Shown here piece by piece: positions 141-62,685 of a DNA stretch of 64,000 nt. The notes under the pieces are model-generated. The model worked only from the letters and a program-made list of their open reading frames with translations. It was not told the DNA's origin and made no database searches. Position numbers and translations under genes: made by a program. Source of the DNA: Patescibacteria group bacterium (GTDB lineage: Bacteria > Patescibacteriota > Patescibacteriia > SBBC01 > CAIJZX01); NCBI GenBank assembly GCA_038065275.1, contig JBBTRH010000012.1:14374-78373 (forward strand), written 5' to 3'. Position 1 is the first letter of the stretch, and the number at the start of each line of letters is the position of its first letter.

Positions 141-2864
141 TTATACGGACGCCGCTTTCTCGACTCGAATAATACCACCCGGCTCAAGCACCGCCACGTC
201 GCGGCGACCGAGCTTCCCCTGGAGCATGGATTGGGCCAGGGCATTGTCGACGTGCTCTTGGACCGCGCGGCGGAGCGGCCGGGCGCCGAACAGCGGGTCA
301 AAACCGCTGATCGCCAACTCGGCCATCGCTTCCGGCGTCGCCCGGAAGGTGATCCCTTTCCGCCCCAGGCGGTCAGTAATGTCGTTCATCATCAAGCCGA
401 CGATCTTGTTCACCTCGATCGGGCTGAGCGGCGTGAAGACGATAATCGAATCGAAACGGTTGAGGAACTCCGGACGGAAATACTGGCTGAGCTCGCGATT
501 AATCAGCTCATCCTTAATGGTCGAGAGGGCCGCCCCGTCCCGCATCCGGTCTTGAATATGCTGGGTACCGGCGTTCGAAGTGGCAATCAGGATGACATTA
601 GTGAAATCGATCGTCCGGCCGTTGCCGTCGGTCAACCGGCCGTCGTCCATCACCTGAAGAAAGACGTTGAGCACATCGGGGTGGGCTTTTTCGAGTTCAT
701 CGAGCAAGACTAAGGAGAATGGCCGCTGGCGGACCGCTTCAGTCAGGTAGCCGGCGCTCGATCCGGCGTAGCCCGGCGGCGCGCCAATCAGGCGGTGGAT
801 ACTGGCCACGTCTTGATACTCGGACATGTCGAGCCGAATCATAACCTCTTCCGACCCGAAGTACACGGCCGCCACGGTTTTGGCCAGTTCGGTTTTTCCG
901 ACGCCGGTCGGACCGAGAAAAAGCAGGTTAGCGATCGGCCGCTTATTGTCTCTTAGCTCGGCCCGGGCGCGGCGCAAGGCGTTAGCCACCGCTTTGACCG
1001 CTTCGTCCTGGCCGACGACCCGCCGGTGCAGTTCCTCTTCGAGATGAAGCAACTTGCCCTGTTCATCGCTCGTCACGGCGGTGGCTTTAACGTGGCCTTG
1101 CTCGGAAACGATAGTCGCCACGTCCTCGCCGACGACCAGGCCGTTCGGTCCGCGTGACTTCCGGGCCAGGACCGCGGCTTGCTCAAGCACATCGAGGGCC
1201 GAGCCTGGTAGCGGCCGCTCATGCAAGTACCGCCGGGTCAGCTCGACCGCTTTATCAATCGCTTCCAGGGTAAAGTACACCTGATGATGAGCTTCCAATG
1301 GGCCGAGGCGCGATTCGATGACTACTAGCGCCTGCTCCGGCGGCATCTCGTTGACTTCAACTTTCTCGAAGGCCGACAATAACGGCCCGTGTTCTAGGGC
1401 CCGGCGGTAACTGGCTGGATCGGTCGTCCCGATCGCCAGAAAAGCATGTTGTTCCAGCTCCTGGGCGACCATCTGGGCCGCGTCCAGTCCTTGGCCGCCG
1501 GTACTCGAAATCCCGACCAGTTGATCGATGTTCTCGATCACTAGAATGATATTCCCCGAGCGGATGATTTCGTTTAATATTGCTTCCAGGCGCTGTTCGA
1601 GCTGACCCGACCCGGCCACCAACGCCGCGGCCGACAGGGCCACCAGGCGTTTGTCCTGTAGCGGTTCGGGCACGTCTTCGGCGGCCATCCGCTCGGCCAG
1701 CGCATACAACAGGTATGTTTTACCCACCCCGCCATCGCCGACCAGCATCACGCTTCGCCGGCCGCTCTCCATGATCCGGAATATCGTCTGCAACTCCTCG
1801 TCGCGCCCGACCACATAGGGTAGGCGGTTGCGGCTGGCGCGGAGCGTCAAATCAACGCTATATCGATCAAGCGTCGGCGTGGCCGCGGCCACGTAGCCGC
1901 GGTCGATGGCGCCCTGGGGTTTATTTGCGGCCCGCCGGAGGTACGACCGGACGCGCCGGCGAAGGTCTTCCTGCACCAGTAGCCAAGCGGTGGCCTGTTC
2001 CAGGCGGCGGACATCAACGCTGAACTCGTCCAACAACTCGCGAGCCGGATCATCGACCGTGCCCATGGCCGCCAGGAGGTAGGCCGGGGTGAGGCGCGAC
2101 CGGCGGTCCGCGGCGGCCAATCGGAAAGCGCGGGCCAAAAGTTCGCGGCTGGCGGCGGTAAAGACCGGGACTGCCGACATGGCCGGCAACTGTCCGACTA
2201 GCTGGTCGATGTGTTGGCGAAGTTCAGAGGCCGGAACCATCAGCCGGACGAGCATGCTCTCGACCTCCCGGGTGGCGCTCAGGGCGGCCAGGAGATGCAA
2301 GGGGCTCAACCCTTCGCGCCGGTGGCCTTTGGCCATCCGCCAGGCATGTTCGATCACCCGGAGCGTCGCTTCGTTACTAACGGCGGCAATATCGCCCATC
2401 GACTGCTCATTCCAGTCCGGAGCCGGCGGGTCCGCCGGCGTCGCCGTCGGAATGGTCGGGAACATCGTCAGGTCGCGTTCGAGCCGGTAGACGAGGTACA
2501 TGGCGCAGAGCAACCCCAGCCACAGCACGGCCATCGGCCAGCTGGGCGTCAGCAGGACATTCCAGACCTCGCCGTCAGCGATCGCTTCGAACAGACGCCG
2601 GCCGCCGAAGAACAGTCCGGTCAAAGCGAACACGAATATCAGGGCGGACAGCAAGCTTTTGACGGTGCGCTCCAGGTGACGTTCGAGAATCGACTGGGTG
2701 GAGATCGGATGCAACCACGACCACCACCGGCCGGCCCACCAGACCGCTACCCCTACCCCATGGCAGGTCGGGCAACCGACCAGCGCGCCGCGTTGGTTCT
2801 TAAGACCGCCGAATCCCTGGCAGGTCGGGCATTTCTCCACGAGTTCGGCGGGCGGTGCATCCAT
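141..2864 (-). CDS. ClpC/ClpB-family AAA+ ATPase with two nucleotide-binding domains; N-terminal CxxC..CxxC zinc ribbon and two hydrophobic helices precede a Clp_N-like domain
   Basis: Walker A GDGGVGKT (D1) and GPTGVGKTELAKTVA (D2); Clp-type D2 motifs; N-terminus CPTCQGFGG..CPTCHGVG followed by two TM-like segments. Confidence 0.85.
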   Translation of the reverse strand: MDAPPAELVEKCPTCQGFGGLKNQRGALVGCPTCHGVGVAVWWAGRWWSWLHPISTQSILERHLERTVKSLLSALIFVFALTGLFFGGRRLFEAIADGEVWNVLLTPSWPMAVLWLGLLCAMYLVYRLERDLTMFPTIPTATPADPPAPDWNEQSMGDIAAVSNEATLRVIEHAWRMAKGHRREGLSPLHLLAALSATREVESMLVRLMVPASELRQHIDQLVGQLPAMSAVPVFTAASRELLARAFRLAAADRRSRLTPAYLLAAMGTVDDPARELLDEFSVDVRRLEQATAWLLVQEDLRRRVRSYLRRAANKPQGAIDRGYVAAATPTLDRYSVDLTLRASRNRLPYVVGRDEELQTIFRIMESGRRSVMLVGDGGVGKTYLLYALAERMAAEDVPEPLQDKRLVALSAAALVAGSGQLEQRLEAILNEIIRSGNIILVIENIDQLVGISSTGGQGLDAAQMVAQELEQHAFLAIGTTDPASYRRALEHGPLLSAFEKVEVNEMPPEQALVVIESRLGPLEAHHQVYFTLEAIDKAVELTRRYLHERPLPGSALDVLEQAAVLARKSRGPNGLVVGEDVATIVSEQGHVKATAVTSDEQGKLLHLEEELHRRVVGQDEAVKAVANALRRARAELRDNKRPIANLLFLGPTGVGKTELAKTVAAVYFGSEEVMIRLDMSEYQDVASIHRLIGAPPGYAGSSAGYLTEAVRQRPFSLVLLDELEKAHPDVLNVFLQVMDDGRLTDGNGRTIDFTNVILIATSNAGTQHIQDRMRDGAALSTIKDELINRELSQYFRPEFLNRFDSIIVFTPLSPIEVNKIVGLMMNDITDRLGRKGITFRATPEAMAELAISGFDPLFGARPLRRAVQEHVDNALAQSMLQGKLGRRDVAVLEPGGIIRVEKAASV

Positions 2865-2868
2865 ACCG

Positions 2869-3336
2869 TCAGCGCAACGGAACGAGTTGACGAATCAGCA
2901 TGGCGGCGCTGATAATTGGCCCCAGCACCCAGGCCAGCAGGGCCACCAACTCGACCACCGTCCAACACCCAAGGGCAATCAGCCGCGCCGCTAAGATAAA
3001 AATGCGGAAAAAGAAACTGATGGCGCGGCCGCTCCGAGTGTAGTCGCCGTACATGGGCTTGCCCATCGTCCGGAGCAAGATGACAATGCTCAGCCGGTTG
3101 ACCAGGCCGAACCACTGTCGGATCAGCGTCCGTCCGGTTAACGCCAAGCCGTGGGTGTACCACCAGACGGGAAAATACAAAACTTCACCTACCAGCTCGC
3201 GGAGGATGAAGAGCGTGGCACGAGCAGTCGTTGATTGGGCCATGGTTTGTGGGGGTGGTTTGAGCGCCTGTATTCTACCATTTTTTTGGCCGGGCGCAAT
3301 GCGGTTCGAAATGAGAAGCGCCGCCTCGAGTATCAT
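2869..3336 (-). CDS. small polytopic membrane protein (hypothetical); alternative start at 3243
   Basis: ORF with 3-4 hydrophobic helices, immediately upstream of and co-oriented with the Clp ATPase gene. Confidence 0.35.
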   Translation of the reverse strand: MILEAALLISNRIAPGQKNGRIQALKPPPQTMAQSTTARATLFILRELVGEVLYFPVWWYTHGLALTGRTLIRQWFGLVNRLSIVILLRTMGKPMYGDYTRSGRAISFFFRIFILAARLIALGCWTVVELVALLAWVLGPIISAAMLIRQLVPLR

Positions 3337-3390
3337 TCAAGAGGCGGCGCTAATCCAAGGAGCGACCGGAAGCCATCATGGCCTTTCCTT

Positions 3391-3777
3391 TTATGGAGGG
3401 GGCAGGGGGGTAGCGGCGATGATGCAGGCGGGCGGCAATCGGAACTCGTGTTTTTCACCGCCGCCAGTCGGACCGTCGACGATGCCGTACGTCTCGACAC
3501 CATCGAAAACTAGAATTGCCTTGAGCCATCCTGACCGCGGCGGCAGTACAGATTTCCGCAGGTGAGCGGGCAACTGCTGTCGAATCTGTTCCTCCTTCAG
3601 CTCCTGGAGAGTCCGGAACAGCACCGGCGAATTGACCGTCAACCGTCGGATCTTGATTCCACCATTGCCGTTCTCCCGGATCTCCACTGTCTCTCCGCCC
3701 AGGGCGATCCGGTGCTCAGGATGGCCTTTCTGGTACCGCTCCAGCACCTGCCGTAGCTCATCACTAAGATACACCAT
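3391..3777 (-). CDS. hypothetical protein (129 aa, begins MVYLSDELRQ)
   Basis: ATG at 3777 preceded by GGAGGTG Shine-Dalgarno; the longer 181-aa track ORF runs through an intergenic inverted repeat and is not supported. Confidence 0.45.
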   Translation of the reverse strand: MVYLSDELRQVLERYQKGHPEHRIALGGETVEIRENGNGGIKIRRLTVNSPVLFRTLQELKEEQIRQQLPAHLRKSVLPPRSGWLKAILVFDGVETYGIVDGPTGGGEKHEFRLPPACIIAATPLPPP

Positions 3778-3864
3778 GTGGTTCACCTCCCTTCGGGTCG
3801 GGAGCCATGAATGCCGGTTTGGGAAAGAGCGCCGGGTTGGCTCCACGGTACACCCAGGCCAGGC

Positions 3865-3989
3865 GTTGTCAACCCCGTTAGAGGCGAATGCTGGCACTGG
3901 AAAAAACGGTTGATTTCCCAGCACCCTGATTGACATCAGTTAGGCCGGCAAACAAAGCTCGCCTCTAACGGGGTCAAGCTTGACAACCG
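3865..3989. promoter_or_regulatory. long inverted repeat in a divergent intergenic region: arms gttgtcaa..ccccgttagaggcga, 15 bp perfect, ~70-nt spacer
   Basis: left arm 3865-3887 is the reverse complement of right arm 3959-3989 apart from a 6-nt bulge; shares the CCCCGTTAGA core with the repeat at 21100-21232. Confidence 0.5.
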
Positions 3990-4073
3990 ACGGGTGTCAG
4001 CGCAGGATAGCGGCACGTCACTCCCGCCCTTTACATCACCCTCCCGCCAACGGCGAGAAGAAAGGACGCGCTA

Positions 4074-4877
4074 TTGACCTGGCTCAACTCTGGTTCGTGG
4101 GTGACGATCGGCGTCATCCTTTTCCTGTGTTTCATCGTCGCTCGGGCGGCGGCTAAGTTTCTGCCCGGCCTCGTCCGTAGCTTATTGGCCAAGCAAGACT
4201 TGGTCGAACGGTACGGCTGGGCCGGGCGCGCCTTCAAGTATCAACGGCTTGTCCCGTGGGTTGACCGGATTCCTATCTCCGCCGACCAGATGACCTGGTT
4301 GCGACTGGGCCTGGTCGGTGGAAGCCTGCTCTGTTTTCGCTTCCAGCTCGATCCGTACATCCTGCCGTTGTACATCATTGGTTGGTTGACCGACTACACC
4401 GATGGTCTTAAAGCCGGCGCTGAAGAACGGCGCCGCGGGCGTCCGACTCGACATGGGAAGTACCTCGACCCGACGATTGACCTGATCTGCTTCACGCTCA
4501 TGGCGGTCGTCCTGGGGCCGTACTACCCGCGCCGACTGTTGATCGCTTTCGCGGTCGCGATTGGCGCCCGGGTCCTCCTGTTCGCCGTCATCTTGGTCGG
4601 ACGACTGTGCCGGCCAACCTGGCGCCGGCGGCTGTCGTCAAACATCTTGCCGAAGACCATCACCGGCGAGGCCAAAGCCGCATTCATCGCCGTCAGTTTC
4701 GGACTGATCATGTTTAGCCGCACGGACCCGACGAATCTGTTCTGGGCCGGCCGGCTGTTGACCATGGCAATCGTCCTCGAGGGCTTCAGCTTGACTCATT
4801 TGGCGCGCCAAGCCTGGCGATCCATCTACGGTCGGCCTCAGCTGTCCATCGTCCCCGCCGATGATCGAACGGGGTAA
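4074..4877 (+). CDS. polytopic membrane protein with a divergent CDP-alcohol phosphatidyltransferase-like motif (DG..AG..G...D...D)
   Basis: TTG start 10 nt after GAAAGGA; ~6 TM helices; motif DYTDGLKAGAEERRRGRPTRHGKYLDPTIDLI. Confidence 0.4.
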   Translation: MTWLNSGSWVTIGVILFLCFIVARAAAKFLPGLVRSLLAKQDLVERYGWAGRAFKYQRLVPWVDRIPISADQMTWLRLGLVGGSLLCFRFQLDPYILPLYIIGWLTDYTDGLKAGAEERRRGRPTRHGKYLDPTIDLICFTLMAVVLGPYYPRRLLIAFAVAIGARVLLFAVILVGRLCRPTWRRRLSSNILPKTITGEAKAAFIAVSFGLIMFSRTDPTNLFWAGRLLTMAIVLEGFSLTHLARQAWRSIYGRPQLSIVPADDRTG

Positions 4878-4967
4878 TGGTGGAACCCCGCATCCGTCCC
4901 GCCCGTCCGGCGGGGCTGGTGCGTGGGACTGAACCTTCACGACCACGTCATTGACGCGGTCGTTTTC

Positions 4968-6974
4968 TTATGGCGCCGCGATCACCACGCCTTGACCGCT
5001 GACGGTCGGGTCGGACGGCAGGTCAGTCGTCAGCGTGGCCGCCGGGCTGGACAGCGCCTTGGCCGTGAAGCTGTCGGTGGCGGTGGCGGTCGCTGTTTCG
5101 ATTAGGATCGGGACGGTGCCGACCTGTTCGGCGGTTGGCGTAATCGCCAAGTCAAAGCGGGCCGTCAAAGCCGGCAGTCGTCCGCCGGTGCCGGCCGGGA
5201 CGGTGTTTAGCGTCCAACGGACGGTCCGGCTCGTCGGATCGAAGGTTAAATCGCCGGCATCACGGCTGAGGTTCTGACCGGTCCACAGCACGCTGGTCGG
5301 AATCCGGGCGCTGACCACCAGGGTCGCGGCGTCGCTGGTGCTGTCCGTCACCGTCCAGGTGACGCGGTAGGTGGTCGTCTTCCCGACCACCGGCGGCACC
5401 GGCCCGCTACCGACCGCTTGGCCCGGCGCCTCGTAGTACCGCGCGGCGGCGGCCAGTTGGAGCACCGTCGCCAGCTTGGTCACCACCACCGTACTCGGTT
5501 GACCGCCGCGATTAGCGTTGGTCGTCAAGCTCGGGGCGGTCACATCGATGCTAGCTGTCACCTTCGGATCGCGGTCAGCGTCAGTCTTAACCGCCAGATT
5601 CGGCAACGTACCGACGGCAAAGCTCAAGGTCACGGACTGGTTCGGTTTAAGGTTAGCCAGCGCGGCAACTTGGTCCTTGGTCCAAGTCAAAACGTTCGAC
5701 TTGACCGCCGCTTGGCTGTCATTCGCCAACTTGGACAGGTCGAGGGCCGCGCCGTCGAGCTTAACGGTGACCGTGGCTTGAGTGATTTCCAGGTCGCTAG
5801 CGTTGGTCACGCGAATCGAGTAGTTGAGCGTCTCGCCCGGATCAATCACCGCCGGATCGGTACTGCCATTCACCGCCACGGTGGTCGTCACCCCGGTCTT
5901 GACCAGGATGACCAATAGCGATTGCTCGTCTTGGAGATCGACGGTGTTGGTGGCCGTCACCAGCCCGGCACTGACCTTGAGGGGGAACGAGTCGCCGAGG
6001 TTACCATCAATCGATCCGACCACGGTGATACTCCCTTGGACGCCTTTTTTCAGCTCCGGGAATTTCCAGACCGCCGACCGCTCCTGGGCCGCCGGATTCG
6101 TACTGGTGACCGTGAAGCCGTCGGGGTAGGCGGCCGTGATCTGGACGTTCTTCAGGTCGCGATCGGAAGTATTCGCGTACGTTGCCGTCCAAGTACCGGT
6201 CCCGCCGGGAGCCAGCTGGGTCGGGCCGGTGAATTGCAAGCTGAGAATCGAAGCGGTGATGGTCACCTGGCGACTGGCTTTGGTCTGGAAGTCGGAGTTA
6301 AAATTCGCCGGCCGGTACGTTAATGTCGCTCCGAAGTCACGGGCCTCGCCGACGGCGCCGATGATCGTCCCGCTGATCGTCGTCCGGCCCGCTTGACCGC
6401 TGCGGATCGTCCCCAAGGTGAAAGCGTTACGGAACTCGTTGGCCGCGGCCGGCTGCGACGTGGTGTAAGTAAATCCTGCGGGATACTCAACCGTCAATTC
6501 AGCATTCGTTAAGTCGACTGGTTCAAGATTCTGGTACTCGACGGTCACGGTCAAATTGCTCCCGGAAATGGCCGAGGTCACGGGCTGGAACTGCAGTTGG
6601 ACGTTATCGTTGGTAAAACGTTTAGCGCGGTTGAAAAAGAAAAAACCAGCCACGCTGACGACGGCCAAGAGGGCGATGATTCCGATCACCCAGCCCCAGG
6701 GGAAACCCCGTTTTGATTTGGTCAGGTGTTGCATCTCCTCCGACGGTTGGCGTTCAAGGACCCGCGATAAATCAGCTTCGCCTTCGCTCAGCGACGATCG
6801 CCGATGTTTCGGCTCAGTTTCCTCGCGGACCGGTATCCTCCGGCCGGGTACCCCTGATTCAGCCGACGCAACCGGAGCGTCGCCGTCGGTTTCCAGGGCC
6901 GCCACGAACTCCGCGATATCATCCTCGCTGTACTTGCCGGGCGGTTGTTTTGGTTCGCCTTTGTGTTTGGCCAT
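4968..6974 (-). CDS. surface protein: charged cytoplasmic N-terminus, one TM helix, then tandem DUF11-like (conserved repeat domain) beta-repeats
   Basis: TM segment WVIGIIALLAVVSVAGFFFF; repeated T/V/S-rich units such as GTGTWTATYANTSDRDLKNVQITAAYPDGFTVTSTNPA. Confidence 0.6.
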   Translation of the reverse strand: MAKHKGEPKQPPGKYSEDDIAEFVAALETDGDAPVASAESGVPGRRIPVREETEPKHRRSSLSEGEADLSRVLERQPSEEMQHLTKSKRGFPWGWVIGIIALLAVVSVAGFFFFNRAKRFTNDNVQLQFQPVTSAISGSNLTVTVEYQNLEPVDLTNAELTVEYPAGFTYTTSQPAAANEFRNAFTLGTIRSGQAGRTTISGTIIGAVGEARDFGATLTYRPANFNSDFQTKASRQVTITASILSLQFTGPTQLAPGGTGTWTATYANTSDRDLKNVQITAAYPDGFTVTSTNPAAQERSAVWKFPELKKGVQGSITVVGSIDGNLGDSFPLKVSAGLVTATNTVDLQDEQSLLVILVKTGVTTTVAVNGSTDPAVIDPGETLNYSIRVTNASDLEITQATVTVKLDGAALDLSKLANDSQAAVKSNVLTWTKDQVAALANLKPNQSVTLSFAVGTLPNLAVKTDADRDPKVTASIDVTAPSLTTNANRGGQPSTVVVTKLATVLQLAAAARYYEAPGQAVGSGPVPPVVGKTTTYRVTWTVTDSTSDAATLVVSARIPTSVLWTGQNLSRDAGDLTFDPTSRTVRWTLNTVPAGTGGRLPALTARFDLAITPTAEQVGTVPILIETATATATDSFTAKALSSPAATLTTDLPSDPTVSGQGVVIAAP

Positions 6975-6986
6975 ACGAGTGATAGT

Positions 6987-7745
6987 CTACCGCGCGATGC
7001 GGCTGTTTGGCAACTGCGCCAGGCGCACTACCGACCGCAACACCCCTTCGCTTTTCAATGGCCGGTCGAGCGTGTGGTGGAGAATTGATTCGACGAGCCG
7101 GCGCAGCGCGGCGAACATCTGACGGTCGTCAGCGCTGTTTCCGCCGCGAAGATAGGCGACGACTGACGGCTTGACGACTGCCGCCTCGGCCGACGCTTCG
7201 CGACGGTGGACAAACCCGGCCGCGGGATGAAACGCGACGTCGTCTGCGGTCAGCGGCTGGTGACAAACGGCGCACCGCTCAAGCGATGGCGCAAATCCCT
7301 GGTGACCGAGAATCAGCCAGGCCCGGCGGAGCAGCCGGAGCCAGCGTTGTCCGGCCGGCGCGTCGGTTTCTTCCGCCATGTCGGCCAGCATGCCGACGAC
7401 GAGGTCGTACAGCGCCGGATCATGCTGATTCGGTTTCGTCACCCGCTCGACGAGTTCGAGCAGCCATTGGGCCATTATCAAACTGACGACCTCCCGGCGC
7501 AGGCGATTGAAACGATTGAGAATGACGCTACCGGTGACGACATCGGTCACCCGACCGTTAGCCAGGGTGAGATCAACTTCCATCATCGGCTCCAGTGAGC
7601 CGCCCAATTTAGCCGTACTTTTTTTCGTCCCCCGCGCTCGAATGCGCATCTGGCCGTACTGCGGGGTCAAGACGACGATTATCCGATCGTGTTCGCGGTC
7701 GGTAGTATGACGCAGAATAAGTGCTTTGGTTCGAATTACCGACAT
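6987..7745 (-). CDS. recO: DNA repair protein RecO
   Basis: N-terminus MSVIRTKALILRHTTDREHDRIIVVLT.. matches the RecO OB-fold; C-terminal zinc-finger-like CAVCHQ; a TATACT -10 ends 7 nt before the ATG, so it may be leaderless. Confidence 0.85.
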   Translation of the reverse strand: MSVIRTKALILRHTTDREHDRIIVVLTPQYGQMRIRARGTKKSTAKLGGSLEPMMEVDLTLANGRVTDVVTGSVILNRFNRLRREVVSLIMAQWLLELVERVTKPNQHDPALYDLVVGMLADMAEETDAPAGQRWLRLLRRAWLILGHQGFAPSLERCAVCHQPLTADDVAFHPAAGFVHRREASAEAAVVKPSVVAYLRGGNSADDRQMFAALRRLVESILHHTLDRPLKSEGVLRSVVRLAQLPNSRIAR

Positions 7746-7994
7746 AAAAAAAGTATAGCACGAAAGAAGAATCAACCCCGTACCACAATACCAAAAATGT
7801 TGTTATCGATTTGGTTGCGGGTTTTTATCGGCAAATTTTGCATGAAGAAAAAATACCGCACCAATTATTGTGGTGCGGGGTGGAGTGCCGCAGGATGAGC
7901 GCTTTAGTGCGGATGGCGGACATGGGTATAGTTTATCAAAAAGAAAGAGGGGCTATCCATAGTCATGGATAGCCCCCGGTGATTGTGCCAGCCG

Positions 7995-8573
7995 TTAGAC
8001 TGGCTTGCTGACGGCGGCGAAGCGCCAGATATCGGGCCACGTTGTGTTGAATGAGGCCTTGTAGAAGCGCCGATCCGACTCGTCCCCGCTGAGGCACGGG
8101 TGGTGGTGGTGGCCGTAGCCATCCAGGCACAAACACACTGAACCGAAAGCAACGATCGGGAACTGACGCTGGAGGTCGCGGGTCTTTAGATTCGCGCCGA
8201 GCGCGAGCAACTCCTCGATCTTAGCCGGACGGTAACCGTGCCGGAGGTCATTGTACACGTCGTCCTCGTCCATGGGGCGGTTGTAGTGGAACAACTTGAT
8301 GTCCACCTCGACCATGCCCGAGCCTTCCACCTGGAGGATGCGCTCGTCGGTGACGTCCGGGTCGGTCCAGTCGTACTGACCGGCCTCGATCATCGCCTTC
8401 AGGTTCTTGTCCCGATTCACCGTGACGCGGTAGACGGTGATGTCCGGGGCCAAGAGCTTGGCAATGGCCTCACCTACATCTACGCCCCGGAGGATGCCCT
8501 TGACGGCGGTCATACCACCGAGCTTGTTGATGAGAGCTTCGATCTGGCCGAGATTCAGGTCTCCGTACTTCAT
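7995..8573 (-). CDS. hypothetical protein (192 aa, His-rich C-terminal part GYGHHHHPC)
   Basis: ATG at 8573 with GAAGGGAG Shine-Dalgarno 7 nt upstream; perfect hairpin terminator ggggctatccatag/ctatggatagcccc at 7950-7978. Confidence 0.45.
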   Translation of the reverse strand: MKYGDLNLGQIEALINKLGGMTAVKGILRGVDVGEAIAKLLAPDITVYRVTVNRDKNLKAMIEAGQYDWTDPDVTDERILQVEGSGMVEVDIKLFHYNRPMDEDDVYNDLRHGYRPAKIEELLALGANLKTRDLQRQFPIVAFGSVCLCLDGYGHHHHPCLSGDESDRRFYKASFNTTWPDIWRFAAVSKPV

Positions 8574-8738
8574 GACGGGACTCCCTTCTGGCTGTTTGCC
8601 AAAAGCTTTGCCTCTGCCCGAGGTCGAGGGACTCGTCTCGCCTTGAGACAAGCATTCGAGGCGCCACCATGGCGCGCCAAATGCTTGTTTCAAGGTTTCC
8701 GCAAGTTATTGTAAAGAACAAAGGAGCATAGCACCTCT

Positions 8739-11700
8739 CTACGGTTTTGTCAACCCTATCGTTACCACTCCGCCATCCAGCGTAATTTCGACTACTTGAC
8801 TCGCCCCCTCCACCGACGGCGTCACCGCCTTCGCCTTGACCTCTTTCAGGAATTCCTGGCTGTATATCTCGACGACTTTCGCCGCAGTCGTGTTCGGCTG
8901 AACGTGGGCAATAATCTCATCGCTCGGCTTCAACTTGGCGGTTTTGCGCAAGGCGTTGAATTCGCGAATCAAGTCGCGGAGCAGGCCCTCGGCTTTCAGT
9001 TCATCGGTCACGGTGATGTCGAGCGCCATATTATTACTCACCGCCCATTCGCTTCCGGTCGGTAATTTATCCGCCTGATGCAATTCCTTGACGTTCAGTT
9101 CATCGCGCACAATCTCGTCGAGATCGGGTCGCAACTGTTCGGTCGTCACAACTTGCTGTAGCGGTTGCCTGACTTTCAACCCGAACTTGGCGCGCAGGGC
9201 ATGACCCTCCTCAACAACGCGTCGGGCCACAGTCATGTCGCTTAACAAACGATTGTCGACCTCACCGACATTCGGCCAGTCTGCCAAATGCACTGATTCC
9301 AGTTCACCGCCGACCGCATGGTAGACGTGCTCGGCCAGGAACGGCGTGAACGGCGCCATCACAGTTGAAAGTTGTAAAAGAACGTGTTTCAGGGTGACGC
9401 TGGCTAGCGGCGCTTGGTCGGATTTGAAACGGTCGCGCGATCGGCGGACATACCAAGTTGATAAATCCGTCACGAAATCACCGATCGCCCGCGCCGCGCC
9501 GGTGATATCGTACTGCTCCAAACGCTTGGTCACATCGGCCACCAGCGTATTCAACAGTGAGTGAACCCAGCGATCCAGTGGATGAGCGGCTGGCCCCACC
9601 TCGGCCCCCTCCTTCGTGGACCTCTCGGCCTTGAGCTCGAGGTCGAAAGGAGGAGGGGTTAGGGGGTGGTTAGAATTCAGCTTCCAGAAGCTGACCACGT
9701 TCGCCAGGATCAAAAATGTCTTTTTTACGCCCTGATCGACGATCTTGAGATCGAAGTTCTTGCTGTCCCACGGCTGATTGGCCGTATACATGAACCAGCG
9801 CACCGCGTCGGCCCCGTGCGTGGCGAACAACTCATCGAGATCGCCGTAATTCTTCAGCGACTTCGATAATTTTCTGCCCCGGGCGTCGTTCAGGAACCCC
9901 AACACCACGACATTTTTGTACGACGGTTTTTTTACCACCCCGGCCTTTTGCAACAGCGTGCTGATCGCCAACAACGTGTAGAACCAACCGCGCGTTTGAT
10001 CAATCGCTTCGGAAATGTAGTCGGCCGGGTAGGCTTCGCCATGGTCAATCTTGTTTTTATTCTCAAACGGATAATGCCATTGCGCGAACGGCATCGACCC
10101 CGAATCGAACCAGGCGTCAGCCACTTCCGGAATGCGTCTCATCCGGCCCGACTTACAACTTGCACACTGCCAACTTACAACATCAATAAACGGCCGGTGC
10201 GGATCGAACGAGCCGTCGGGCTGGAACAATGACGCCGGAAATTTCAGTTCGATTGGTTGAGCGTTGTCCAATAGCGGCACGTCGTGAAGCACGGATTCCG
10301 GTTGGAGCGACAAGGCCCACCGCACGACGTAAATCGGGTCGCTGTGGGTCACGATTAGGATCGTCTTCCCTTCGTACTTGGCGTCTAGCTGATGAAGTAT
10401 GTTGAACATTCTGGCGCGGATTTGTAGCCACGTCTCGCCGCCCGGTGGCGCTTCATGGAGCCGGACGGCTCGATCACCGAAACCCTGGTGGAATTCCTCA
10501 ATAGTTTTCCCTTCATAGACCAGGCCGATGTGGTACTCATTCACCCGCGACTCGGTCGTGACCGCTAGTTTAATTTCCTGACCAATGATGTCGGCAGTTT
10601 CCTTGGCGCGGGCGAATTGCGATGAGATAATGACGTCAATCTTCTCGGTTTTTAACTTCTGGGCAACCTGCCGCGCTTGTTCGCGCCCCCGCGCCGTGAG
10701 CCCGGCCGTGCCGTCAGACAGCTCGGTATCCAGAGTCTCATTCAGATTGTTCGTCGACTCGCCGTGGCGGATGAAAATGTAGCGATTCCTGGTCGGTATT
10801 CGTTCCCGCAGTTCCTGATAACTCCCCAGGCACTCCTGATGTTTGCACTGATCGCACTGCCAGATGGGAATTGGCGTGCCCCAGTACCGTTCGCGGGAAA
10901 TGGCCCAGTCTTTCACTTCCCGCAACCACTCACCAAACCGACCGTCTTTAATGTGACCTGGGTACCAATTGATCTTTTCGTTGTTCCTGATCAGTTCATC
11001 GCGCAGTTTCGACATCATGATGAACCACGACGTTTTGGCGTAGTACAAGAGCGGGTGCTTACAGCGCCAGCAGAAAGGATAGTCATGTCGGTAGTTCTCA
11101 GCTTTGTAGAGTTTGCCGTGTTCTTGCAGCCACGCCATGATTTTTTTCTGTGTCTCCCCTTTCGGATCTTTCACTTCCAATCCGACCCAGGGTTTGACCA
11201 ACCCGTTAAACCTGCCTGTTTCATCAACCGTGTGGATTTTCGGTAAATCAAGATTCTTTCCCAGTTCGAAATCCTCAACGCCGTACATGACCGCGGTGTG
11301 GACGACGCCGGTGCCGTCTTCGGTCGTGACGAAGTCGGCTGGAACAATGGTGTAGGCGTTTCTGTTCGCACCCGCCGCCCCGCCGTCATTTTTCTCCGTA
11401 GGGGCGGGTTTGAAACCTGCCCCTACGTCGGCGGGGTGGGCCCTCCGCAAATCAACAAAATCAAACAGCGGTTTATATTTTTTTCCAACCAATTCAGATC
11501 CGTGGATAATCTGCAATGAACTTAGTTTTAGCGGTGTGCCAACATCCGCTTGACTTGCTCCGGCCACTTTTTCGGCATCTTTCAAGGCTTCCATTCTTTT
11601 TTGCGCAACAATAAACCGTTCACCCTCAGCGTTCGGAGTGGTTTTTACGTAATTTATTTTCTCGTCAACCGCTAACGCCACATTCCCCGGCAACGTCCAC

Positions 11701-12365
11701 GGCGTCGTGGTCCACGCCAACACGAACGTGCCTGGTTCATCGACGAGTTCGAATTTCACGTAGACCGAATCTTCTTCAATGTTTTGGTATCCTTGCGCGA
11801 CTTCGTGTGACGACAAAGCTGTTCCGCATCGCGGGCAATATGGCACAACTTTGTAATCTTGGGCCAGCAGTTTCTGATCCCAAACCTGTTTGAAAATCCA
11901 CCACAGCGTCTCGATGTACTCCGGTTGATAGGTAATGTAGGGATGGTCAACGTCGAGCCAAAAACCGACGCGCTCCGTCATCTTCTCCCACCGGTCTTTA
12001 AATTTCCAAACCGATTCTTTCGCTTTGGCGTTGAATTTTTCAATGCCGTACTTTTCAATGTCTTTTTTTCCCGACAGACCTAAATCTTTTTCCACCTCGA
12101 GCTCAACCGGTAACCCTTGCGTATCCCAACCGGCTTTCCGCTCGACGCGGTAGCCTTGCATCGTCTTGAAACGCGGGATAATGTCTTTGAAGGCCCGAGT
12201 TTCGACGTGACCGATGTGCGGAATGCCGTTGGCCGTCGGCGGACCGTCGTAGAAGACGAAATTGCCCTGCGGCGAGGGTTTCTGGAGCGTTTTCTTGAAG
12301 ATGTCCCTTTCTTTCCAGTCCTTCAGGATCTGCTCTTCAAGTTCGGGGAATTTGGGGATGGCCAT
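8739..12365 (-). CDS. ileS: isoleucyl-tRNA synthetase, type 2 (eukaryote/archaea-like), with an inserted ~200-aa histidine-phosphatase (PGM-family) domain
   Basis: HIGH motif PHIGHV, KMSKS variant RKLSKSL, editing-domain and tRNA-binding regions; insertion YIFIRHGES...THSD between the WQCDQCK and WQCASCK zinc-knuckle halves (about nt 10200-10800). Confidence 0.95.
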   Translation of the reverse strand: MAIPKFPELEEQILKDWKERDIFKKTLQKPSPQGNFVFYDGPPTANGIPHIGHVETRAFKDIIPRFKTMQGYRVERKAGWDTQGLPVELEVEKDLGLSGKKDIEKYGIEKFNAKAKESVWKFKDRWEKMTERVGFWLDVDHPYITYQPEYIETLWWIFKQVWDQKLLAQDYKVVPYCPRCGTALSSHEVAQGYQNIEEDSVYVKFELVDEPGTFVLAWTTTPWTLPGNVALAVDEKINYVKTTPNAEGERFIVAQKRMEALKDAEKVAGASQADVGTPLKLSSLQIIHGSELVGKKYKPLFDFVDLRRAHPADVGAGFKPAPTEKNDGGAAGANRNAYTIVPADFVTTEDGTGVVHTAVMYGVEDFELGKNLDLPKIHTVDETGRFNGLVKPWVGLEVKDPKGETQKKIMAWLQEHGKLYKAENYRHDYPFCWRCKHPLLYYAKTSWFIMMSKLRDELIRNNEKINWYPGHIKDGRFGEWLREVKDWAISRERYWGTPIPIWQCDQCKHQECLGSYQELRERIPTRNRYIFIRHGESTNNLNETLDTELSDGTAGLTARGREQARQVAQKLKTEKIDVIISSQFARAKETADIIGQEIKLAVTTESRVNEYHIGLVYEGKTIEEFHQGFGDRAVRLHEAPPGGETWLQIRARMFNILHQLDAKYEGKTILIVTHSDPIYVVRWALSLQPESVLHDVPLLDNAQPIELKFPASLFQPDGSFDPHRPFIDVVSWQCASCKSGRMRRIPEVADAWFDSGSMPFAQWHYPFENKNKIDHGEAYPADYISEAIDQTRGWFYTLLAISTLLQKAGVVKKPSYKNVVVLGFLNDARGRKLSKSLKNYGDLDELFATHGADAVRWFMYTANQPWDSKNFDLKIVDQGVKKTFLILANVVSFWKLNSNHPLTPPPFDLELKAERSTKEGAEVGPAAHPLDRWVHSLLNTLVADVTKRLEQYDITGAARAIGDFVTDLSTWYVRRSRDRFKSDQAPLASVTLKHVLLQLSTVMAPFTPFLAEHVYHAVGGELESVHLADWPNVGEVDNRLLSDMTVARRVVEEGHALRAKFGLKVRQPLQQVVTTEQLRPDLDEIVRDELNVKELHQADKLPTGSEWAVSNNMALDITVTDELKAEGLLRDLIREFNALRKTAKLKPSDEIIAHVQPNTTAAKVVEIYSQEFLKEVKAKAVTPSVEGASQVVEITLDGGVVTIGLTKP

Positions 12366-12447: not shown

Positions 12448-12522
12448 AATTCAGGAGAGGGGCGGTACCGAATACCGTCAGTCAATCTTGGTTAAGGTTC
12501 CCCTCCTCAATTGAGGAGGGGT
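12448..12522. terminator. pair of GC-rich hairpins (cccctcctgaattcaggagagggg; cccctcctcaattgaggagggg) downstream of the DUF559 gene
   Basis: perfect or near-perfect palindromes; the same CCCCTCC..GGAGGGG hairpin recurs at 14826-14848, 21796-21816 and 40085-40110. Confidence 0.5.
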
Positions 12523-12883
12523 AAGGGGCGGTGGCAATTTCCTCAATCTTTATTAACACCCCACTAATGTCTCCTATTACTTCCTCATTCCGAAAACGCA
12601 CAATCCGAACATACATAGTCTTCAGCCAATCCGTCCGCATCGCGTCGTGTTGTTGCTGAACCGGAGTATCATGCCCGGCGCCATCAAGCTCTATTCCGAG
12701 CCGAAGTTTCGGACAGTAAAAATCGAGCATGTAGTTCCCAATACTGTACTGTCGCCTAAATTTCAATCCGAGAAATCGCCGGCTACGCAAGTATTCCCAA
12801 AGAGCAACTTCTGGGCGCGTCGAAGCGCGCCGTAAGTATCGGCGTCGTTCGAGATGCAGATTGAGCGTACGAATACGAGGCAT
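12482..12883 (-). CDS. DUF559 (Vsr-like) endonuclease-domain protein
   Basis: motifs LWEYLR..FRRQ..IGNYMLDFYCPKLRLGIELDG..H; ATG at 12883 preceded by GGAGGA. Confidence 0.75.
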   Translation of the reverse strand: MPRIRTLNLHLERRRYLRRASTRPEVALWEYLRSRRFLGLKFRRQYSIGNYMLDFYCPKLRLGIELDGAGHDTPVQQQHDAMRTDWLKTMYVRIVRFRNEEVIGDISGVLIKIEEIATAPYPSSIEEGNLNQD

Positions 12884-12973
12884 GCGTCCTCCGCAAGCCA
12901 CCAATCACCTTCTAAGCTAGATCAAATTGCAAATACCGTCAAGGTCATGAACCAAAAAAACCACCCGAACGTT

Positions 12974-19726: not shown

Positions 19727-20129
19727 TGGTGGAGATGGCGGGTCTTGCACCCGCGTGGCGACGAACTTCCCGCTGGTACTGTTCACATGCGTAGTCCGCT
19801 GTTGCGATACGTCACCACGTAGACAACGGACGAGAAACCGTGATGACGTTGTTCAGACAATACCGATTGCTAGGACTGAACGGTCTACCAATCGGTCCGA
19901 CTAAATGACACCCGCGATTCCCCAGCCGGAGTCAGGAGACGGATGCGCCGACGCGTTTAGGCGAAGGCGGGAACAAACGACGGGGTCGCGAAAGCGCGAG
20001 CTACCGCGGTCCGAAGTTTGCTGAGAAGTGTATTGGCACTTATCATGTCCGACATTTTTACGAAGTTGTCGGCGTTTCGGCATGGTACCGAGCAGGTTGT
20101 CAAACATCGTTCGACGATTGAACATCCCC
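19727..20129 (-). ncRNA. ssrA: candidate tmRNA (ssrA), ~403 nt
   Basis: 5' GGGGAUG pairs with 3' CAUCUCC; 3' end CGCGGG-UGCAAGA-CCCGCC-AUCUCC-ACCA parallels the E. coli GCGGGUUCAACUCCCGCCAGCUCCACCA; internal frame ..AVARAFATPSFVPAFA-UAA; smpB lies 2 kb away; the T-loop deviates from TTCRA. Confidence 0.45.
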
Positions 20130-24034: not shown

Positions 24035-24110
24035 GCGGACCGTACGGGAGTCGAACCCGTGGTCTCCTCCGTGACAGGGAGGCGTGTTAACCACTACACT
24101 AACGGTCCGC
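24035..24110 (-). tRNA. tRNA-Asp (anticodon GTC) with an atypical 9-bp acceptor helix (or a 2-nt bulge); no encoded CCA
   Basis: GCGGACCGT-TA-GTGT..ACAC-G-CCTCC-CTGTCAC-GGAGG-AGACC-ACGGG-TTCGACT-CCCGT-ACGGTCCGC-A; anticodon and T arms are close to E. coli tRNA-Asp. Confidence 0.7.
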
Positions 24111-61989: not shown

Positions 61990-62345
61990 GTTTCTTGGCG
62001 GCCTAACTCCGCTGCACCATCTATCCACTGGTGGTCGCACCCCGCAGAACACTCACTTTGTTCGTGTCTACGGGGCAGGCCTGGGCTCGAACCAGGGACC
62101 TTACGGATGTGACGGCGCGCTCCCCGGCCCGCTTCGCCTGCGGTTAAAATTAGTAAATAGTTTCTGGTGGGGATGAGAGGATTCGGACCTCTGACCTTTC
62201 CGACCCCGCTGGTGGTCGCACCTGGGCTCGAACCAGGGACCTTACGGATGTGAACCGTACGCTCTGACCAACTGAGTCCCGACGTTCCGTGCGACGGAAG
62301 TCGGGATCCCGACTCTCGCTTAGCGAGACGTCGGGACTACTGTCA
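61990..62345 (-). other. three tandem tRNA-like modules ending ..ACCA (T-arm GGTTCGAGCCC/GGTCCGAATCC plus acceptor 3' strand), one with a TTCACAT anticodon-like loop; none folds into a canonical cloverleaf
   Basis: minus strand: ..GUACGG-UUCACAU-CCGUA-AGGUC-CCUGG-UUCGAGC-CCAGG-GUGCGACCACCA; mini GGGGUCGGAAAGGUCAGAGGUCCGAAUCCUCUCAUCCCCACCA; third copy has a 40-nt hairpin between T-arm and 3' acceptor. Confidence 0.45.
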
Positions 62346-62608: not shown

Positions 62609-62685
62609 TGGTGGCCACTGCTGGATTCGGACCAGCGACCTCACCGATGTGAACGGTGCGCTCTAACCGACTGAGCTAAGTGGCC
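62609..62685 (-). tRNA. tRNA-Val (anticodon CAC) with encoded CCA
   Basis: GGCCACT-TA-GCTCAGTCGGTTAGAGC-G-CACCG-TTCACAT-CGGTG-AGGTC-GCTGG-TCCGAAT-CCAGC-AGTGGCC-A-CCA; all stems are Watson-Crick paired. Confidence 0.85.

Follow-up and report, generated by a model that had tools for sequence, protein, structure and literature searches.

We examined a stretch of 64,000 nucleotides (the window) from contig JBBTRH010000012.1 of a Patescibacteria group bacterium (assembly GCA_038065275.1), in which the ileS gene encodes an isoleucyl-tRNA synthetase (IleRS) that contains a histidine-phosphatase domain within the loop of a zinc knuckle. The gene is a single uninterrupted open reading frame (ORF) on the minus strand, with no stop codon or frameshift, and the 1208-residue length reported in an initial annotation made from the sequence alone is correct. 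The features of the gene, in window positions and in the order of translation, are:

8739..12365, minus strand: ileS, type-2 isoleucyl-tRNA synthetase with insert, 1208 amino acids (aa) (ORF list; TIGR00392; Pfam)
12207..12218, minus strand: HIGH motif, aa 50-53, canonical in the window (from the sequence)
10845..10856, minus strand: first CxxC of the second zinc knuckle, C504/C507 (aligned to WECEGC of 8C8U)
~10212..10796, minus strand: inserted segment, ~aa 524-718 (colinear alignment to insert-less IleRS2 after excision)
10239..10778, minus strand: His_Phos_1 (PF00300), aa 530-709 (Pfam, E=1.7e-34)
10155..10166, minus strand: second CxxC of the zinc knuckle, C734/C737 (aligned to CPVC of 8C8U)
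9858..9872, minus strand: KLSKS (KMSKS-type) loop, aa 832-836, ~115 residues beyond the insert

The host protein is a type-2 IleRS. Against the NCBIfam model TIGR00392 (ileS) it scored 833.5 bits (cutoff 621.4) in a match of two stretches, and its best matches in the Protein Data Bank (PDB) were the IleRS2 of P. megaterium (8C8U) and 1ILE of T. thermophilus, with the type-1 structures 1FFY and 8C9E ranking far lower. Pfam resolves the protein into a tRNA-synt_1 domain split by the nested His_Phos_1 domain, followed by Anticodon_1 and DUF5915 (aa 1113-1207). The motifs for synthesis and editing are intact: the class I signatures HIGH and KLSKS are present, as are the CP1 editing motifs TTTPWT (aa 219-224), GTGVVH (aa 351-356) and D365. 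The protein is not a member of the mupirocin-resistance families MupA and MupB (NF000257 and NF000258), for which it scored 707-710 bits against a cutoff of 1900. It is identical to MEK7637342.1, a 'class I tRNA ligase family protein' from a Patescibacteria-group metagenome-assembled genome (MAG), and neither a second phosphatase nor a second IleS is encoded in the window.

A phosphatase domain nested in the second zinc knuckle

The initial annotation had described a segment of about 200 residues at 10200-10800, which began with one histidine-phosphatase motif and ended with another and which separated two halves of a zinc-binding element upstream of KMSKS. Each peptide on which this description was based is present where it was placed, namely WQCDQCKHQECLGSYQEL (aa 502-519, window 10809-10862), RYIFIRHGES (aa 528-537), ILIVTHSDPIY (aa 669-679) and WQCASCKSGRMRRIPEV (aa 732-748, window 10122-10172). 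The location is also right, on a gene that runs on the minus strand and in which the downstream motif reads KLSKS. Two details need revision. First, the knuckle halves were said to be adjacent in other synthetases, whereas the two Cys pairs lie ~35 residues apart in a normal IleRS2 such as 8C8U, from which we derive a net insertion of ~190 aa. Second, the segment does not end at ILIVTHSDPIY, as the phosphatase fold extends for another ~35 residues beyond THSDP. When aa 524-716 were excised, the remaining sequence was colinear with residues 385-627 of 8C8U (E=7e-83) and with 1ILE (E=2.5e-81), and the excision point fell in the short 8C8U loop '...ELQKH-ASHY-VDDSIELHKP...' between the Cys pairs. 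At the same site, the insert-less IleS proteins of three loci (L084, L133 and L140) from the Candidate Phyla Radiation (CPR) have a short loop only.

The identity of the insert was established by profile, structure and sequence comparisons. The PF00300 match reached 119.6 bits against a gathering cutoff of 21.7 and covered model positions 2-181 of 194. An AlphaFold2 model of aa 520-725 folded into one compact domain with a pLDDT of 92.9 and a pTM of 0.90. Searching this model against the PDB with Foldseek returned 311 matches at E<=0.001, of which the top 50 all belong to the histidine-phosphatase superfamily; the best were MgpP/GpgP, PspA, CobC, PhoE and a riboflavin-pathway HFP, with TM scores of ~0.73-0.78. 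At the sequence level, PhoE (1EBB/1H2E; E=1.6e-12) is the closest protein of solved structure, to which the RHG motif and the catalytic R, E and H all align, such that both histidine motifs recognized in the initial annotation occupy catalytic positions. The insert reached none of the NCBIfam equivalog cutoffs, including those for dPGM, CobC and PspA. We considered a true dPGM and rejected it, as the insert scored 87.1 bits for NF038349 (cutoff 225), 56 for NF002901 (cutoff 261) and 36.4 for NF002339 (cutoff 316), and the mutases are longer and ranked lower in Foldseek. These comparisons confirm that the insert is a complete branch-1 histidine-phosphatase domain nested in the second zinc knuckle of IleS, where it occupies a surface loop of the Rossmann-fold insertion that carries this knuckle.

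A long in-frame insert within an essential gene, found among relatives at more than one site and in multiple copies, could also signify a mobile parasite or an error of assembly or gene calling, and the initial annotation had raised an intein-like element lacking splicing motifs. That suggestion does not survive the sequence comparisons. The Pfam scan found no Hint, intein or homing-endonuclease family, the junctions PTRN|RYIF and PDGS|FDPH have no splice residues, and the segment comprises a complete enzyme fold with invariant catalytic residues that exists elsewhere as a separate, translationally coupled gene. Against an artefact, the composition of the DNA shows no break at the insert, independent contigs (NCBI, ENA and Logan) encode the identical protein, and at least 150 diverged clusters share the architecture. 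The chance that the insert is a parasite or an artefact is therefore practically negligible.

Distribution and conservation of the fused phosphatase

We estimated the extent of the fusion with an exhaustive profile search of 1.84 billion cluster representatives, in which each match corresponds to a separate cluster at 50% identity. At least 150 clusters carry the arrangement of flank, phosphatase and flank, and the 150 matches listed scored 280-526 bits. The matched region was nearly always one stretch of 330-400 residues, beginning near residue 420-530 in full-length proteins of mostly ~1100-1280 aa. At E<=1e-30 the search returned 1178 proteins, a number that can only cap the count of fusions, since phosphatases that stand alone score ~130-170 bits with such profiles; the 150 clusters are the safe lower bound. 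Word-index homology searches had made the fusion appear rare, with four fragments in the first search and about 15 short fused fragments in all, none above 481 aa; the exhaustive search overturned this impression. Six diverse fused representatives exceed the TIGR00392 cutoff, at 827-947 bits.

The insertion is lineage-wide rather than a singleton. It was found in 12 species representatives of GTDB, mainly Candidatus Kerfeldbacteria, with others labelled Liptonbacteria, Harrisonbacteria and 'Saccharibacteria', and the named carriers are designated 'Patescibacteria group' or 'Candidatus Paceibacterota'. The IleS loci that we found from other phyla all have the short loop. Two MAGs labelled 'uncultured Gammaproteobacteria' (loci L001 and L007) encode IleS-phosphatase regions that are 69% and 52% identical to that of the window; these bins are probably mislabelled, because all other carriers are Patescibacteria.

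To assess conservation, we used 152 diverged fused representatives, whose phosphatase domains share a mean pairwise identity of only ~33%. The catalytic residues are:

10761..10769, minus strand: RHG motif (R533, nucleophile H534, G535), aligned to the RHG of PhoE; R in 147/147 and H in 147/147
10608..10610, minus strand: R586, second phosphate-binding Arg, in an S-x-x-x-R-x-x-x-T-A motif; 151/152
10536..10538, minus strand: E610, putative proton donor, aligned with the Glu of PhoE 'rEihlG'; E in 143/152 and D in 8/152
10344..10346, minus strand: H674, second catalytic His, within THSDP in the window and HGDPLW in most relatives; 152/152

Other residues counted with this set are also kept, including S582 (152/152), E644 (151/152) and N540 (130/147). 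The retention of the catalytic set at 94-100% in domains that are otherwise ~33% identical indicates strong purifying selection on the catalytic residues. This result bears on whether the insert might be an inactive expansion that enlarges the zinc-knuckle lobe and serves structure or tRNA binding. Such a structural takeover would fit the zinc-ligand cysteines, all four of which are retained in only ~65% of fused relatives, the remaining third or so of carriers having lost them. However, pseudo-enzymes normally lose the catalytic residues, whereas here R, H, R, E and H persist while the rest of the domain has diverged, which makes an inactive expansion highly unlikely. The domain is, very probably, an active phosphatase.

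The host enzyme is likewise preserved. In all 56 full-length fused representatives, the motifs TTTPWT and GTGxVHxA, the residue D365 and a K-[ML]-S-K-x loop are intact, and the CP1 zinc cysteines are kept in at least 54. At the HIGH motif, G-x-H-H replaces H-x-G-H in 23 of these 56 representatives and in the ileS genes of loci L117, L144 and L152 ('MGVHHAWGR'). One study reportedly describes an IleRS2 that is hyper-resistant to mupirocin and in which a signature motif of the active site is changed, said to be a swap of HxGH to GxHH.

We also compared the divergence of the two parts of the fusion. Pairwise alignments of close relatives showed IleS bodies that are 67-76% identical and phosphatase domains that are 42-65% identical; among more distant relatives, the identity of the phosphatase saturates near 33%. 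The two divergences are correlated (Mantel r=0.27, p=0.001). A comparison based on columns of a multiple sequence alignment had given r=0.05, which seemed to indicate non-vertical inheritance; that idea was abandoned when pairwise alignments and closer relatives revealed co-divergence followed by saturation. Based on the co-divergence within clades, we conclude that the domain is inherited with the gene within clades and evolves faster than the synthetase. One Candidatus Kerfeldbacteria locus (L012, 4513-8088) encodes an IleS body that is 76% identical to that of the window and a phosphatase that is only 42% identical, whereas other relatives with bodies 67-75% identical have phosphatases at 51-65%. 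This discrepancy points to accelerated evolution or replacement of the domain in that lineage.

Linkage of the phosphatase to ileS

We scanned metagenome contigs for the phosphatase-internal pattern [ILV][VI][SG]HGDPLW, using 7 sequences. The pattern matched at least 600 stretches, of which 585 were verified to be relatives. The counts that follow are from the best 80 loci, ranked with an inserted phosphatase as reference, a procedure that may favour fused forms. These loci contain 82 phosphatase ORFs: 73 lie in ileS (71 of them at the zinc-knuckle site), 7 are free-standing beside ileS, and 2 are at contig ends, where the arrangement is undecidable. Within Patescibacteria, the phosphatase subfamily typified by the HGDPLW motif thus occurs essentially only with IleRS, either fused or adjacent.

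Five of the seven free-standing phosphatases, and that of the independently found L084, are directly upstream of and co-directional with an ileS that has no insert. Translational coupling is evident at several of these junctions, with an ATGA stop/start overlap in L084, L140 and L152 and another overlap in L133; the genes are separated by 12 nt in L117 and by 46 nt in L144. The insert-less partners are ~940-975 aa in the four complete genes, which score 672-982 bits for TIGR00392, and the incomplete gene of L144 has ileS as its best match at 542 bits. The upstream phosphatases are 51-63% identical to each other and constitute a single coherent group, and their nearest relatives are particular inserted domains (50-60%), which indicates that the change between adjacent gene and inserted domain took place once or a few times and that the linkage was never given up. 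At L093, an ileS with an insert (2254-5907, plus strand) is accompanied just upstream by a divergent free-standing phosphatase gene (1527-2171, minus strand) that is transcribed in the opposite direction. L094 is arranged alike, and the extra phosphatases are ~30% identical to the inserted ones.

The number and position of the inserted domains also vary. In 144 of 153 proteins, there is a single copy at the zinc-knuckle site. Three proteins (P0209, P0217 and P0244) carry a tandem pair at this site, and the duplication is old, because their first copies are orthologous to each other and their second copies likewise. In P0251, a copy is located beyond the second Cys pair. Four proteins (P0141, P0210, P0260 and P0263) have a second copy ~75 residues past KMSKS, immediately ahead of the anticodon-binding domain, and P0230 has a phosphatase at this later site only, with a normal, short zinc loop. 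P0257, which is 1161 aa and ends at the contig end, contains four copies (426-613, 695-878, 885-1056 and 1070-1157) that are each other's best matches, which looks like serial duplication within the gene. That the partnership occurs in several geometries, with the domain inserted at two or three positions, repeated in tandem or encoded by a coupled gene upstream, argues for strong selection for proximity.

The genes around ileS were compared across 91 related loci. Upstream, argS was found in 42 of the 91, and recO was found downstream in 33; trpS, smpB and RNase J also occur. The ileS-recO order is found in the window as well:

6987..7775, minus strand: recO, downstream of ileS (RecO_N and RecO_C in Pfam)

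Between the two genes is an ORF of 232 aa without a Pfam match (7995-8693, minus strand), located in a stretch of elevated G+C (~0.60 vs ~0.52), and directly upstream of ileS is an ORF with an endonuclease-like DUF559 domain (12482-12904, minus strand). Elsewhere, the window contains a tmRNA (19727-20129, minus strand; 81.9 bits) and three tRNA matches on the minus strand (24036-24108, 62612-62685 and 62213-62279), two of them clear and one marginal (32.4 bits; gathering score 29).

The linkage to ileS allows us to weigh the main alternative, namely that a housekeeping phosphatase for small molecules, such as phosphoserine or a sugar phosphate, became fused to or operonic with an essential, constitutively expressed gene in tiny genomes and is mechanistically unconnected with aminoacylation. 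Metabolic phosphatases are indeed its nearest relatives of solved structure, the domain evolves faster than the IleS body until its identity saturates, the diverged multiple copies suggest extra or different catalytic capacity, and one related free-standing phosphatase (P0284) adjoins a ROK kinase and a HAD hydrolase. However, every HGDPLW member in the sample that could be placed is in or beside ileS, at no fewer than three insertion points, and none is with another gene. Moreover, argS, trpS and recO are close by yet never serve as hosts, and insertion within a folded catalytic domain is a costly way to achieve co-expression. Because ileS was chosen exclusively over neighbouring essential genes, we disfavour simple co-expression and consider it rather unlikely. 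The specific and recurrent link to IleRS instead favours a function tied to IleRS over accidental moonlighting, and functional coupling beyond co-expression is probable, if less so than catalytic activity itself.

Proposed function and comparison with known systems

In class Ia synthetases, the insertion in the second Rossmann half that bears this zinc knuckle is located next to the KMSKS loop and to the route that the tRNA acceptor end takes. In sequence, the later insertion site described above follows KMSKS closely. These positions weakly suggest a phosphatase acting in cis, with its target at or near the synthetic site. We propose that the domain is an active PhoE-like phosphomonoesterase that is obligately partnered with IleRS and acts in cis near the synthetic site, a reading to which we assign slightly better than an even chance. 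The phosphatase would hydrolyse a phosphomonoester through the covalent phospho-histidine intermediate that histidine phosphatases form, and the two enzymes would constitute a module with a stoichiometry of 1:1 or higher, held in close proximity. As for the target, the likeliest candidate would be either a 2'/3'-phosphorylated acceptor end of tRNA(Ile) or an adenine nucleotide, an assignment that is possible but doubtful; a phospho-serine of the KMSKS loop would be less likely still, and we regard it as decidedly improbable.

One form that this function could take is a built-in reset or repair activity, which would remove a blocking phosphate from the 2'/3' end of tRNA(Ile), left by nuclease damage or by toxin-type pyrophosphorylation of CCA, or from a KMSKS serine modified by a HipA-like kinase. 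This idea is drawn from general knowledge of such toxins and is, in our estimate, unlikely; if true, it would be the first case of a phosphatase built into an aminoacyl-tRNA synthetase to counter phospho-inactivation of translation. Among more distant free-standing homologues (loci L085 2600-5588 and L086, Candidatus Liptonbacteria, and L170/L171), P0316 is the last in a same-strand row of a faintly matching PP2C-like gene, an APH-type kinase, a 107-aa tRNA_bind protein (PF01588) and the phosphatase, and P0328, which is 70% identical to P0316, is preceded by PAP2, with a weak 2H/CPDase match two genes away. These neighbourhoods hint at RNA-end chemistry, which is suggestive, but they are not recurrent and we do not use them as evidence.

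Several observations weigh against the proposal of a cis-acting phosphatase partnered with IleRS. The conserved neighbours at the 91 loci are housekeeping genes only, with no partner kinase, toxin or RNA-repair gene among them, and the tRNA-related neighbours of the distant free-standing homologues did not recur when checked. The nearest characterized relatives act on phosphoserine, glucosyl-3-phosphoglycerate and alpha-ribazole phosphate rather than on RNA or protein. Tandem, diverged copies are easier to reconcile with a need for additional or altered catalytic capacity than with one repair function in cis. In addition, the ranking of the best 80 loci may have enriched for fusions, and the distance of the phosphatase pocket from the IleRS active site or the tRNA 3' end is one that we infer.

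A regulatory role, which the initial annotation had also mentioned, could take the form of a sensor, in which a phosphorylated metabolite (e.g., an alarmone or an intermediate of glycolysis) binds the domain or transiently phosphorylates it on H534 and thereby tunes the KMSKS loop allosterically, coupling Ile-tRNA charging to metabolism. A phospho-histidine is well established for the superfamily, the KMSKS loop has an insertion site on either side in sequence, and conservation of the catalytic residues would be equally expected for ligand binding or phosphorylation. Nothing supports this model specifically, though, and the separately translated phosphatases would require a stable complex for allostery, while tandem arrays are hard to explain, for which reasons we consider such a switch quite unlikely. 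Returning to the proposed phosphomonoesterase, knowing its substrate would reveal a phospho-dependent step or lesion in tRNA(Ile) charging, or else a new coupling of metabolism and translation in the CPR, a major and poorly understood radiation whose reduced genomes seldom keep useless sequence.

This architecture is invisible in current annotation, where NCBI names such proteins 'class I tRNA ligase family protein' or, for fragments, 'histidine phosphatase family protein'. None of the NCBIfam models that match the window protein describes an IleRS with a histidine phosphatase, and a full-text literature search, which included a 2026 preprint on IleRS domain evolution, returned no description of the partnership. 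Although aminoacyl-tRNA synthetases have been studied as thoroughly as almost any enzymes, catalytic domains newly found in synthetase cores are rare, and earlier additions have pointed to editing, signalling or resistance. A curated precedent for an IleRS with an extra enzymatic domain is NF040702 (ileS_w_GNAT), in which that domain is a GNAT rather than a histidine phosphatase; the window protein is not a member, as it scored 265 bits against a cutoff of 1999. The leucine-specific domain and CP3-type insertions of class Ia synthetases are lineage-specific modules placed in the second Rossmann half shortly before KMSKS; in LeuRS, the module influences the KMSKS loop and the handling of the acceptor end. 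Those modules are small and non-enzymatic, in contrast to the insert, which is a complete phosphatase with conserved catalytic residues. The mycobacterial bifunctional RNase H/acid phosphatase (NF005567, for which the insert scored 80 bits against a cutoff of 326) likewise joins a branch-1 phosphatase to a nucleic-acid enzyme, but as an end-to-end fusion with RNase H, whereas the domain in the window is nested in a synthetase.

Each half of the fusion closely resembles characterized proteins. Like the IleRS2 structures 8C8U and 1ILE, the synthetase has two zinc knuckles, the HIGH, KMSKS and CP1 editing motifs and a C-terminal DUF5915 domain; it differs by ~190 more residues, which build an entire enzyme domain into the short loop that separates the Cys pairs. 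The insert has the fold, size (~190-200 aa) and catalytic residues of PhoE (YhfR of Geobacillus stearothermophilus), PspA, GpgP/MgpP and CobC. It is distinguished from the PhoE type by its own HGDPLW-type motif (THSDP in the window), and from all of these free-standing enzymes of small metabolites by being nested in, or translationally coupled to, an IleRS. Taken together, a synthetase with an accessory domain and this phosphatase fold are each known, and what is new is their combination, which is undescribed and evidently selected.

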